64,000 nucleotides of DNA, taken from NCBI GenBank assembly GCA_014238615.1, contig JABAAT010000024.1, positions 23,802-87,801 of the forward strand, written 5' to 3'. The notes below the pieces were generated by a model that was given only the letters and a program-made list of their open reading frames with translations, was not told the origin of the DNA and made no database searches. This DNA is from Gammaproteobacteria bacterium. GTDB taxonomy: Bacteria; Pseudomonadota; Gammaproteobacteria; Porifericomitales; Porifericomitaceae. The position numbers and the translations under genes were made by a program. Below, piece by piece: positions 1,470 to 5,257 of this stretch (the first letter of the stretch is position 1; the number at the start of each line of letters is the position of its first letter).

Positions 1470-2627
1470 TCAATGTTCCCTTAAACGGGGCCGCAGTTCC
1501 GCAAGATTACAGGGCCTGGTGCGCGCATCCAACTGTGCGCGAATGAGACGATCCCAGGCCAGGGAGCAGGCTCCAGGCGAGCCCGGCAGGCAGAACAGGT
1601 AACGACCGTTGCAGACTCCGGCGAGCGCGCGTGACTGCAGGCTGGAAGTTCCGATCTGTTCCCAGGATAGATTCCGGAAAAGCTCCCCAAACCCCTCCAG
1701 GCGCTTGTCCAGAAGCGCCGTCACCGCCTCTGGAGTACCGTCGCGCCCGGTGACCCCAGTGCCGCCGCTCAGCAGCACGACATCGATTTCCGGTTGCACG
1801 CACCAACCGGACACCACGGCGCGTACCTGGTAGATATCATCCGATGCAACCTGTTTTTCGACCAGGCGGTGACCGGCCTGGCGTAAACGTTCCACCAGCA
1901 AGGCGCCGGACTTGTCGCTGCTCTCGTCACGGCTGTCAGAAACCGTGAGTACGGCAACGCCCAGCGGCGCGGCGCACTCTTCTCCCCGATCTTCCTCGGG
2001 GCGTAGCGGCGCAAGCTCCAGAGCCCTCCCCCAGCGCTCCACGTGCACCGATTCCGCCAAGGGTCGCCGCTGCCGCGGCGCGGCTTCGGATTCACGCAAA
2101 GCCCGCGGCACCCGCGCCTTCGGCAGTTGCCGACCCACGGCGATAAAGGCCATGAGATGGAAACGCTCCGGGACAGCGAAGCGGCTACGCGCCAGATCCT
2201 GGTCAAAACCTCCCATCTGGTGCGCCATCAGCCCCAGGGCCGTGGCCTGCAAACAGACAGACAAGCCGGCCGCGCCGCTGTCGTAGTCCCCCCAGCGGTT
2301 ATCGGCGTCGCGCTCACTGAAGCGGGTATCGGCCAACAGCAACAGCAACAGCGGCGCCTGCGCCGCCCATTTCTGGTTACCCGGGCTCAGGCACTCCAGG
2401 GCTTCCCGCCAGGCATCGGTGTCCGCGTCGCGCCGAAACAACAGGCAGCGCCAAGGTTGATCCCCGTAACAGGAAGGCGCCCAACGCGCCGCCTCTAACA
2501 AGGCCGTCACCTGGATATCGTCCGGATGCCACCGCGCGTCAAATACGCGTCCGCTCCAGCGCAAAGCCAATAATTCGTGGATGGGCACGGCGGAGTGGGC
2601 CGGCTTGCGTTGAGTGGGTCCAGGCAT
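1470..2627 (-). CDS. moaB: Nitroreductase-family domain fused to molybdenum cofactor biosynthesis protein MoaB
   Basis: N-terminal RWSGRVF..EAARWAPS..QPWR..HQMGGFD (nitroreductase); C-terminal VAVLTVSDSR..DKSG..DDIYQVR..GGTGVTGRDGTPEA..CLPGSPGA..PCNL (MoaB); one uninterrupted 385-aa ORF. Confidence 0.9.
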   Translation of the reverse strand: MPGPTQRKPAHSAVPIHELLALRWSGRVFDARWHPDDIQVTALLEAARWAPSCYGDQPWRCLLFRRDADTDAWREALECLSPGNQKWAAQAPLLLLLLADTRFSERDADNRWGDYDSGAAGLSVCLQATALGLMAHQMGGFDQDLARSRFAVPERFHLMAFIAVGRQLPKARVPRALRESEAAPRQRRPLAESVHVERWGRALELAPLRPEEDRGEECAAPLGVAVLTVSDSRDESSDKSGALLVERLRQAGHRLVEKQVASDDIYQVRAVVSGWCVQPEIDVVLLSGGTGVTGRDGTPEAVTALLDKRLEGFGELFRNLSWEQIGTSSLQSRALAGVCNGRYLFCLPGSPGACSLAWDRLIRAQLDARTRPCNLAELRPRLREH

Positions 2628-3286
2628 ATCAGTCTCCTTGGAGAAAACCGCCTCGGCGCAGCGGGGTCATGACATCTTGTATTTATGCTAGCACGGCGTT
2701 CCCAGGGTGTTTCGCCCGCACCCCGTCGCGCCCCGCACGGAGGCGTTTCTCCCGCAGTATGCGCCACACACCCCTGAATTCGCAGCCCCCCCGGCGTGCT
2801 TCAGAAACCTGCCGCGCACGGCCACCCCGGAAACAGCTTTCCAGCCGTTTTCCCCGGCCTTTCCCCCCGGCCGTTTTTTCCGAAGCCCGGTTTCTGTTAC
2901 CATGCCGGGTTATCTCATGCACCGCATTCCCGATCAAAAAACGTCTCAAGGGCAATAGTTAAGACGGTAACTCAAGGCAGTGATCCACGGCGGTGACCTA
3001 AGCAGGGCATCCCGAGGAAAGCGGCCTTCCGCGGCGTTTTCTTAATCACTTCCGGGGCGCCCCCCGGAGCCGACGTCACCTTGAAACACCCGGCTGATCC
3101 GGGACATCATGAACGCATGCATCATCGGCGTGGGCACCAGGCGCTCCTGCGTCTAAAGCAACACACCGGGGATCCAGAACCTCCCTCAGTAGCCAGCAAC
3201 ACGGTGAGTTCCATCATTTTCAACTTCGCGGCAACGCCCTGGCACAGGACGCCCCACACGTACCAGGGGACGTTTCAAGACCGGCG

Positions 3287-5257
3287 ATGGGCCTGAGCTT
3301 TGATATATCCGGGGCGCAGATCCTCGGGGCCCGAGAGTACCAGGAAGATGAATTCCTGATTTCCAACCTGGTGGATGAGAACGATGATCCAGCCGCCTTG
3401 ATCGCGGTGGCCGACGGCATGGGCGGTCACGCCGCCGGGAATGTCGCCGCCAACATGGCGGTACAGTCCTTCAATAAACATATCCGCGCCAATTATCCGG
3501 GCGGTAATATCCACGAACTACTCCACGAGAGCGTGCTGCGCGCGAATGCCAGCATCGCCGAGACCATCAACGAAACGCCCGCCCTGCAGGGCATGGGCTG
3601 CACCATCGTGGCGGCGGTGATAGACAAGGGGGAAATGTGGTGGGTGAGTGTCGGGGACAGCCATCTTTACCTGTTGCGCAGCGGTAAAATCTATAAGAAA
3701 AACGCCGATCACAGCTACGGCGGGTTCCTGGATCGCTTGCGCGCCTCGGGGCACACGATGGAACCCCAGCCCGGCCTGTCACGCAACGTACTGATGAGCG
3801 CCCTCACCGGGGAGGACATCGTTGAGATCGACTGCCCGGAAGAGCCGCTGAGCCTGCTTAACGGGGATCGCCTGCTCTTCTGCAGCGATGGCCTTGATAC
3901 CCTGAGCGATGGCAAGATCATCCACTATTCGAGATGGGGTACAAGCTCCAAGGAGTGCGTGGAAGAACTGCTTAAAGGAGTCACCGGCGAAAACAAAACA
4001 CGCCAGGACAACACGACTACCCTGGTGGTGGATGTGCACAGCGGCGTGCAACAATCTCAGCAAAAGCACGAGGAATCGGCGACCTCGGAAGGGATGATGG
4101 CAAAAGACCGTGAAGCCACCCTGCAGCTTGACCCCGCCGCCCGCAAAGAATACTTCGAGCGGATGTACCGCAAGGCCGTCAGTACGGCGAGCGTGCGACG
4201 TCCGCTGCCGGAGCGTCCAACGCGCTCCTTATTCAGTGGATTGCTGCAGCTGCCAACGCACTCCTTGTTCTTCAGGGGATTGTTGCTGCTGCTGCTGCTG
4301 GTTCTCAGCGGCGTTGCGTTCTATCTCCTGAGCGAGCCTATCTTCCTGAACATTGAGTTCCTGCGGCGAACGGAACCGTTTTCCTCCACACTGGAGACTG
4401 CACCGGAGACCCCGGCGTCGCCGCTTGCAAAAAGTCCCCGGGAAGGGCCTGCGGAGGGGCAGTACGAAGACGCGTATGAACCCCTGACGGTGAAGCCGGC
4501 CGCGCCGCCGCAACAGGTTCAAATCATCAGTGATCCGCTGTCGGACGGCGACATGGGGCCGGAATTGGTGCTGATCGAGGGGGGCACTTTCCGCATGGGC
4601 GGTTTGCTAAGCATCCATCCGGAAGAAAGCCCCGCACACACGGTACGCATCAAGAACTTTGCGATCAGCATCCGGGAAATCACGGTAAAAGAATACCTGC
4701 TCTACCTTCGCGCCACCGGGGATCCGCCCCCCGGGATAGAACACACCCCGGTTCGGGAAAACCATCCGGTCCATAATCTCTCCCGGAACGACGCGATCAG
4801 CTACGCGCGCTGGCTCAGCGAGACCACCGGCAGAAAGTATCGTCTGCCAAGCGAGGCCGAATGGGAATACGCGGCCAGCGCCGGAACCAGGCGCTACTAT
4901 TGGTGGGGCCCGGAAATGGTCCCCGGGCGCGCGCATTGCAGCCTTGGCTGCGGTTCCGTTTCAGGGCCCCAGGGGGGACCCCTGCCGGTGGGTCGCTTCA
5001 TGCCCAATCCTTACGGCCTGTACGACACCGCCGGAAATGTCTCCGAATGGATACACGACTGCTGGCATCCTAATTACCAGGGAGCTCCGAACGACGGCAG
5101 CAGTTGGCAGTCGGAAAATTGTCGTGCGTGGATCACACGAGGCGGATCCTACGAAAGCCTTTCCGGACGCCTGGGTCATCGCAACCGGGAACGCAGAATA
5201 TCGTCCACGATCCCTTATCCGGACGTTGGCATCCGGGTTGTACGGGAATTGGATTAA
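3287..5257 (+). CDS. PP2C-family Ser/Thr phosphatase - TM helix - FGE-sulfatase (SUMF1-like) domain protein
   Basis: PP2C motifs VADGMGGH, MGCT, VGDSHLY, DHS, CSDGL, QDNTT; TM GLLLLLLLVLSGVAFYLL; FGE motifs FRMGG, RLPSEAEWEYAA, NPYGLYDTAGNVSEW, RGGSY, GIRVVRE. Confidence 0.9.
   Translation: MGLSFDISGAQILGAREYQEDEFLISNLVDENDDPAALIAVADGMGGHAAGNVAANMAVQSFNKHIRANYPGGNIHELLHESVLRANASIAETINETPALQGMGCTIVAAVIDKGEMWWVSVGDSHLYLLRSGKIYKKNADHSYGGFLDRLRASGHTMEPQPGLSRNVLMSALTGEDIVEIDCPEEPLSLLNGDRLLFCSDGLDTLSDGKIIHYSRWGTSSKECVEELLKGVTGENKTRQDNTTTLVVDVHSGVQQSQQKHEESATSEGMMAKDREATLQLDPAARKEYFERMYRKAVSTASVRRPLPERPTRSLFSGLLQLPTHSLFFRGLLLLLLLVLSGVAFYLLSEPIFLNIEFLRRTEPFSSTLETAPETPASPLAKSPREGPAEGQYEDAYEPLTVKPAAPPQQVQIISDPLSDGDMGPELVLIEGGTFRMGGLLSIHPEESPAHTVRIKNFAISIREITVKEYLLYLRATGDPPPGIEHTPVRENHPVHNLSRNDAISYARWLSETTGRKYRLPSEAEWEYAASAGTRRYYWWGPEMVPGRAHCSLGCGSVSGPQGGPLPVGRFMPNPYGLYDTAGNVSEWIHDCWHPNYQGAPNDGSSWQSENCRAWITRGGSYESLSGRLGHRNRERRISSTIPYPDVGIRVVRELD

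Follow-up and report, generated by a model that had tools for sequence, protein, structure and literature searches.

Within a 64,000-nucleotide stretch of contig JABAAT010000024.1 (assembly GCA_014238615.1, Gammaproteobacteria bacterium), hereafter the window, we found one open reading frame (ORF) in which a nitroreductase-family (NTR) domain is joined to MoaB, a protein of molybdenum cofactor (Moco) synthesis. The fusion is a real, rare and lineage-restricted architecture of two known enzyme families. It is probably an ordinary gene fusion, real as it is, and not a new pathway; we consider it likely that two old syntenic neighbours were fused during genome reduction, each half retaining its own activity, with no coupling between them needed. 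The gene would then be a clean example of genome reduction turning syntenic neighbours into one bifunctional gene; almost every stage survives in a living genome, from intervening genes and a spacer to a shared frame broken by one stop, overlap and fusion.

To define the two halves, the translated ORF (Table 1) was compared with domain profiles. The Pfam Nitroreductase profile (PF00881) matched residues 23-166 over profile positions 4-167 of 167 (E 9e-17; 62.1 bits against a gathering threshold of 23.5), covering the whole domain and placing the N-terminal half in the nitroreductase superfamily. MoCF_biosynth (PF00994) matched residues 225-366 (profile 1-142 of 144, E 2e-26). The C-terminal half scored 243.4 bits with the NCBIfam equivalog TIGR02667 (moaB_proteo; cut-off 222.4, profile 4-162 of 163) and only 68.5 bits with the MogA equivalog NF006932 (cut-off 158), and is therefore of the MoaB type and not of the MogA type. 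The original prediction of one ORF with a complete nitroreductase domain, a short linker and a complete MoaB domain was thus borne out at full length, and its coordinates were off by a few bases at most. It had reported GGTG and PGSP motifs, which were located at residues 288-291 and 348-351. Its claim that the junction holds no internal stop or ATG could be widened, as the DNA between the domains contains no in-frame ATG, GTG, TTG or stop; MoaB is therefore made solely within the fusion product. The initiating ATG was preceded by a Shine-Dalgarno sequence that was strong on inspection.

Further motifs were seen in both halves. The NTR half carried RWSGR (23-27), APSCYGDQPWR (50-60) and HQMGGFD (136-142); the first two correspond to the R-x-S-x-R and APS..QPW(R) nitroreductase motifs and both aligned with the solved structure 2fre. 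We take these two motifs to be elements of the flavin mononucleotide (FMN) site, and the half is predicted to be an NAD(P)H oxidoreductase that depends on FMN and belongs to the 2fre-like nitroreductase subgroup. The AlphaFold2 model (54-sequence alignment) had a mean predicted local distance difference test (pLDDT) score of 88.8 and showed two confident domains, the NTR half being mostly above 90, joined by a linker that was disordered (pLDDT <50 at residues 211-216). Among the fused orthologs the linker ranged from 18 to about 38 aa and was hypervariable in sequence, and it aligned with the N-terminal tail of the stand-alone MoaB of relatives.

In order to verify the junction, independent assemblies were used as a proxy for raw reads. 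At least 10 contigs encode the identical 385-aa protein, and they derive from no fewer than four separate runs or assemblies (ERZ23490425, SRR11455655, SRR11455656 and SRR11455659). Three diverged orthologs were likewise composed of these two domains from end to end (P0002, 72% identity; P0003, 59%; P0004, 53%), P0002 lying on a 487-kb contig and P0004 on a 2.0-Mb contig, and all three shared one neighbourhood (NTR-MoaB, then, where present, a phytase-like gene on the other strand, MFP, RND pump and YkuD). An assembly or sequencing artefact, in which a false frameshift joined two genes, might have been suspected since in G002 and G003, the closest relatives by GTDB, NTR and moaB are two genes whose frames differ; given the repeated independent assembly and the diverged fused orthologs, we give this reading practically no credence and consider it effectively refuted. 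Relatives with adjacent separate genes, part of what the original prediction had named as speaking against a fusion, thus do exist; the other part, a fusion private to this assembly, does not hold, as three orthologs are fused.

No further NTR-MoaB fusion was observed among the best matches of a search over 5.8 billion protein clusters, nor any further protein with NTR and MoaB in the top 150 of an exhaustive search over 1.84 billion representatives. The latter result is weak evidence of absence because the known fused relatives were missing from that list too, probably having been clustered under single-domain representatives. Two matches in two stretches from the same search, P0144 and P0232, proved to be NTR-NTR and NTR-DUF924 proteins. 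Neither the architecture nor a functional link between a nitroreductase and MoaB was found in the full-text literature searched, in agreement with the earlier statement that the fusion was not known to be characterised, and no source gave the fused proteins a name.

The origin of the fusion was approached through gene order in relatives. A block of the order MoxR(-), NTR(+), intervening genes, moaB(+), phytase-like(-) was conserved across several families of the class, and the interval between NTR and moaB varied from 3.7 kb to none (Table 1). Larger genomes kept the pair apart by an opposite-strand Hsp15-like gene, at times with MATE and GST-like genes as well; small genomes lacked these genes. 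G001, the fourth member of the window's family, keeps the synteny and moaB but has no NTR. The source genome is small (1.67 Mb, 75 contigs, 99% complete), and the Candidatus Porifericomitaceae group is known for sponge association (PMC12625764). No homologs of the Hsp15-like, MATE or GST-like genes were found anywhere in this genome; these genes were therefore lost and not moved.

Table 1. Positions and arrangements of the fused gene, its surroundings and the matching loci of relatives. Positions without a locus name are those of the window.
Feature	Position	Strand	Remarks
Whole fused gene	1470..2627	minus	385 codons plus stop (1470-1472); from ORF list and translation
Shine-Dalgarno AAGGAG	2634-2639	minus	read from sequence; 6 nt upstream of the ATG at 2627
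N-terminal nitroreductase-family (FMN oxidoreductase) domain	2022..2627	minus	residues 1-202; PF00881 and 2fre match
Interdomain linker ELAPLRPEEDRGEECAAP	1965..2018	minus	residues 204-221, 18 residues
C-terminal MoaB domain	1473..1964	minus	residues 222-385; TIGR02667, PF00994
ASDD motif of MoaB half	1836-1847		contains Asp263
GGTGVTGRDGTPEA motif of MoaB half	1725-1766		residues 288-301; contains GRDGTPEA with Asp296
Upstream intergenic region	2628-3286		660 bp, between fusion and PP2C-FGE gene
PP2C-FGE gene	3287-5257	plus	656-aa protein
Phytase-like gene (PF13449)	~156-1445	plus	secreted
Phytase-like gene in relatives	L013 4947-6164; L014 1686-2765; L016 2836-3924; L024 2975-4000		
NTR and moaB in G164			gap 3.7 kb; MATE, GST-like and Hsp15-like(-) genes between
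NTR and moaB in G234			gap 1.9 kb; MATE and Hsp15-like(-) between
NTR and moaB in G212 (cultured Methylohalomonas lacus HMT 1)			only Hsp15-like(-) between
NTR and moaB in G018			only Hsp15-like(-) between
NTR and moaB in G235	L024 1369-2640		147-bp spacer, same frame, two stops between
NTR and moaB in L029 (Tara metagenome-assembled genome)	2995-4146		same frame, stop plus 12 nt apart
NTR and moaB in G002 and G003 (window's family)			abutting or overlapping, different frames
NTR and moaB in window, P0002, P0003 and P0004			fused
Lineages of P0003 and P0004	L018 1-5837; L019 1-5086		fusion directly downstream of pqqBCDE and other cofactor genes (see text)

The evidence favours the fallback offered by the original prediction, a neutral fusion by genome compaction. 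From an ancestral block of MoxR(-), NTR(+), MATE, GST-like and Hsp15-like(-) genes, moaB(+) and phytase-like(-), the intervening genes would have been deleted in the reduced genomes of the sponge-associated Ca. Porifericomitaceae-like family. With the deletion of the opposite-strand spacer gene, moaB would have lost its own upstream region and come to depend on the NTR promoter. It would next have come to lie directly behind, and then to overlap, the NTR gene, after which a small frame or stop change would have joined the two reading frames; the linker would be essentially the former N-terminal tail of MoaB. G235 and L029 represent natural pre-fusion states in which read-through products at a low level are conceivable, and in L029 the loss of one stop codon would recreate the fusion.

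Both halves of the fused protein are under purifying selection, and the linker drifts. Within fused pairs, the ratio of nonsynonymous to synonymous substitution rates (dN/dS) was 0.11-0.14 in NTR and 0.11-0.12 in MoaB; the linker gave 0.3-0.9 over all four pairwise comparisons, and these values are approximate because dS was >1. They bear on the possibility that one half is a decaying passenger, for example a dead nitroreductase kept only to extend MoaB at its N-terminus or to serve as its expression leader. Such a reading would suit the fact that G001 manages without NTR; however, the dN/dS of the NTR half equals that of MoaB, the motifs RWSGR, APSC..QPWR and HQMGGF were invariant in all four fused orthologs, and the NTR fold was modelled with confidence, which makes decay very improbable.

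The original prediction had also suggested that a flavin redox step is coupled to Moco maturation. In such a functional Rosetta-stone fusion, the flavin domain would serve Moco maturation: it could be an NAD(P)H-dependent pterin reductase of the dihydropteridine type that keeps molybdopterin (MPT) reduced in an oxic host, or a metal oxyanion could be its substrate right at the MoaB active site. E. coli NfsB has dihydropteridine reductase activity. If the flavin half did act on the pterin cofactor, this would be a new accessory step of Moco biosynthesis. Several observations speak for coupling, or otherwise weigh against a mere joining of neighbours. In the concatenated NTR+MoaB tree, L029 was sister to G164 (100/97), which keeps 3.7 kb between the genes, and G235 was sister to G018 (98/96), which keeps Hsp15; together with family f1, direct adjacency thus arose independently at least three times, and selection for coupling, not drift, could be the reason. 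The fusion has long been retained with both halves conserved, and a fused state kept past synonymous saturation (dS >1) could reflect the same selection. P0061 joins a member of the same NTR subfamily to a MocA/MobA-like nucleotidyltransferase, and a pterin-4a-carbinolamine dehydratase gene (Pterin_4a) and genes of the tetrahydromethanopterin (H4MPT) pathway lie just upstream in L018 and L019. As to the number of fusion events, the concatenated trees gave strongly supported fused pairs (window with P0002, and P0003 with P0004) and grouped all fused forms to one side of a weakly supported branch (68/78 and 42/80 in trees of 7 and 15 sequences), so that a single origin is neither shown nor rejected. 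Fusions of the same NTR subfamily to TPMT/TehB-like methyltransferases may be added on the side of coupling.

Against these points stands the genomic distribution of the two genes. An opposite-strand gene separates NTR and moaB in the ancestral layout, and the two are therefore separate transcription units in the larger relatives. When 300 genomes of the class were sampled, about 145 matched the query, nearly all, among the matches listed, to the MoaB half. An NTR ortholog was present in no more than about two dozen, and in only 7 of these did it lie within 4 kb of moaB. Most genomes of the class with this MoaB therefore have no such NTR, and G001, of the same family and synteny, keeps moaB without it. 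The Methylophilaceae ortholog of NTR was found between mutS and a thioredoxin gene, and the partners fused to the subfamily were many and unrelated (DUF924, PRTase, DinB_2, a second NTR and also the TPMT/TehB-like methyltransferases). NTR-moaB adjacency was limited to one group of families, with the opposite-strand gene between in most, and the fusion was seen only in four related sequences; the pattern expected of coupled genes, with partners co-occurring and co-transcribed, or the fusion recurring, across unrelated lineages, was not observed. The evidence gives no support to a mechanistic role of the flavin half in Moco synthesis, the proposed coupling is in our view improbable, and we infer that no transfer of electrons or substrate between the halves is needed. 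More doubtful by a shade is the specific proposal of a flavin domain dedicated, as an NAD(P)H-dependent reductase, to pterin/dithiolene repair and protection, and tethered to the MPT adenylyltransferase to keep oxygen-labile MPT reduced during activation. If true, it would be an unrecognised accessory step of molybdenum or tungsten cofactor (Moco/Wco) synthesis in aerobic methylotroph-like symbionts, and would explain the repeated adjacency and the fusion of NTR to a MocA-like enzyme elsewhere. The joining of old neighbours during genome reduction thus stays the preferred account, and it carries a caution for Rosetta-stone inference, as a shared pathway is not implied by a conserved fusion.

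Two leads from this part of the work were dropped. P0061, the MocA-like protein with NTR, was set aside as a second Moco link after it scored below the MocA/MobA cut-offs; its contigs were short and their context uninformative. The pterin-reductase lead was abandoned on the finding that no pterin or Moco genes lie near the Methylophilus NTR orthologs placed between mutS and thioredoxin. It was also observed that pqqBCDE and H4MPT/methanofuran-type genes (DUF6513, DUF447, 4HFCP_synth and Pterin_4a) lie immediately upstream of the fusion in the lineages of P0003 and P0004; this gene set points to methylotroph-like one-carbon (C1) metabolism in the clade.

We then considered the activity of the MoaB half. 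The source genome encodes only two PF00994 domains, those of the fusion's MoaB and of MoeA; of the two genes proposed earlier as a check, moeA was thus present elsewhere and mogA was not. MogA was absent from this 99% complete genome, and G001, G002, G003 and G235 likewise had just these two PF00994 domains and no MogA. The motifs of an MPT adenylyltransferase (EC 2.7.7.75) were all found in alignment with the P. furiosus MoaB structure 4lhb, namely GGTG, Asp263 (SDD) and Asp296 (GRDGTPEA), the corresponding MogA residues presumably being Asp49 and Asp82. At the positions of SDD and GGTGVTGRDGTPEA in the fusion, the active P. furiosus MoaB has PDD and GGTGITRRDITIES, and the inactive E. coli MoaB has KEN and GGTGLTEGDQAPEA. 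Asp56 of the P. furiosus enzyme is equivalent to Asp515 of Cnx1G, the Mg-binding catalytic residue (PMC3896444). Genes for MoaA, MoaC and MoaE were found in the source genome. A Pfam profile search detected a MobA-like gene immediately upstream of moeA, and a tblastn search with the MobA portion of P0099 gave no match. The Moco users found there were the alpha subunit of an NAD-type formate dehydrogenase (FDH) and two proteins of the sulfite-oxidase family; no enzyme of the xanthine dehydrogenase (XDH) type was found, and the second PF00384 match proved to be NuoG.

In the methylotroph M. extorquens, deletion of mog leaves FDH activity unchanged and moaB resisted deletion (PMC13197769). Taken together, the absence of MogA, the kept catalytic Asp, the presence of the Moco pathway and its users, and these genetics suggest that the MoaB half is probably the cell's MPT adenylyltransferase (MPT + ATP -> MPT-AMP). 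It would feed MoeA and MobA and so provide cofactor for formate dehydrogenase and the two sulfite-oxidase-family enzymes. MoaB proteins are hexameric (PMC3896444); the expected assembly would be a MoaB hexamer core carrying three nitroreductase dimers on flexible linkers. The alternative is that this half has another role, for instance in regulation or binding, as E. coli MoaB may, with adenylylation bypassed or carried out by an unrecognised protein. In its favour, TIGR02667 is an equivalog that contains the E. coli MoaB, inactive in MPT adenylylation (PMC3896444), the best PDB match of the half is that same protein (1r2k), and the roles of bacterial MoaB have been described as uncertain (PMC13197769). 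We nevertheless consider it unlikely, since neither this genome nor its family has MogA, Moco-dependent enzymes and their pathway are present, the catalytic Asp and RD-x-TPEA are kept, unlike in E. coli MoaB, and bacteria with MoaB only are known (PMC3896444). The locus therefore adds evidence that 'proteobacterial MoaB' is the working MPT adenylyltransferase in MogA-less, FDH-dependent C1 bacteria, in agreement with the M. extorquens genetics.

Among known proteins, E. coli MoaB (1mkz, 1r2k) belongs to the same TIGR02667 family (155 residues aligned with 1r2k, E 8e-50), shares GGTG, GFGE.FR, PGS and QLDARTRPCN with the fusion, and is hexameric, as the MoaB core of the fusion is expected to be. 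It differs in being stand-alone, in having KEN and EGDQAPEA in place of SDD, with its catalytic Asp, and GRDGTPEA, and in being reported inactive in an organism that also has MogA (PMC3896444). P. furiosus MoaB, an MPT adenylyltransferase, has in common with the fusion the PDD/SDD Asp and GGTG-x-T-x-RD-x-T (PMC3896444), and both are the sole MogA-type enzyme of their organism; it is, however, archaeal, thermophilic and unfused, and the similarity is distant (E 1e-20). For the NTR half, the closest solved structure was the A. tumefaciens 'NAD(P)H-flavin oxidoreductase' 2fre (E 4e-29, residues 11-195), which shares R-x-S-x-R and APS..QPWR and differs as a stand-alone structural-genomics protein; we know of no physiological substrate for it. 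The second-closest was the T. maritima peroxiredoxin-nitroreductase hybrid 4eo3 (E 5e-17), which belongs to a related NTR subgroup and is also fused to an unrelated enzyme. This hybrid is FMN-containing and dimeric (PMC8113037); its partner is a 1-Cys Prx/BCP domain N-terminal to NTR with no Moco link, whereas here MoaB is C-terminal.

Domains of the MoaB/MogA type are also joined to other proteins within the Moco pathway, as in MoaC-MoaB (NF002947), MoaD/E-MoaB (P0049), MobA-MoaB (P0099) and MoaB-MoeA (P0094), and likewise in the eukaryotic Cnx1 and gephyrin. In these fusions the partner catalyses a neighbouring Moco step, whereas the partner in the present case is a general flavoenzyme, not an established Moco enzyme.

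Other fusions of both families were encountered during the searches. A protein of about 483 aa with MoaB, HisKA and HATPase_c (histidine kinase) domains was recurrent in purple sulfur bacteria and metagenomes (P0010, P0012, P0016, P0018-20, P0025 from Thiocapsa rosea, P0029, P0032 and P0034), where its only annotation is 'MoaB'. A role as a cofactor-sensing kinase is conceivable, and we judged this architecture more intriguing than NTR-MoaB. The same NTR subfamily was found with a TPMT/TehB-like S-adenosylmethionine-dependent methyltransferase in proteins of about 403 aa (P0076, P0077, P0108 from Methylothermus subterraneus, and P0179), which suggests a reduce-then-methylate detoxification module, e.g. 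for selenite or tellurite. A fusion of MoaB with a GNAT acetyltransferase domain was seen in P0005 and P0104.

In the surroundings of the fusion, an Rfam scan of the whole window gave no match, and thus neither a Moco riboswitch nor any other RNA upstream of the gene, and a promoter and terminator scan of the upstream region was unremarkable. The upstream intergenic region is unusually long for a 1.67-Mb genome, and the Shine-Dalgarno sequence was its sole stretch conserved with L017, the locus of the closest fused relative, P0002. The spacer upstream of the fusion is also long there (711 bp), but unrelated in sequence. Downstream, the phytase-like gene faces moaB convergently in almost all relatives, which span several families, and is the most stable neighbour of moaB in the clade; it was absent only in loci of the L018, L019 and L029 type, where MFP directly follows moaB. 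On the other side, the divergent gene beyond the intergenic region encodes a protein with a PP2C phosphatase domain, a transmembrane segment and an FGE-sulfatase domain, and is conserved beside the fusion in L017.

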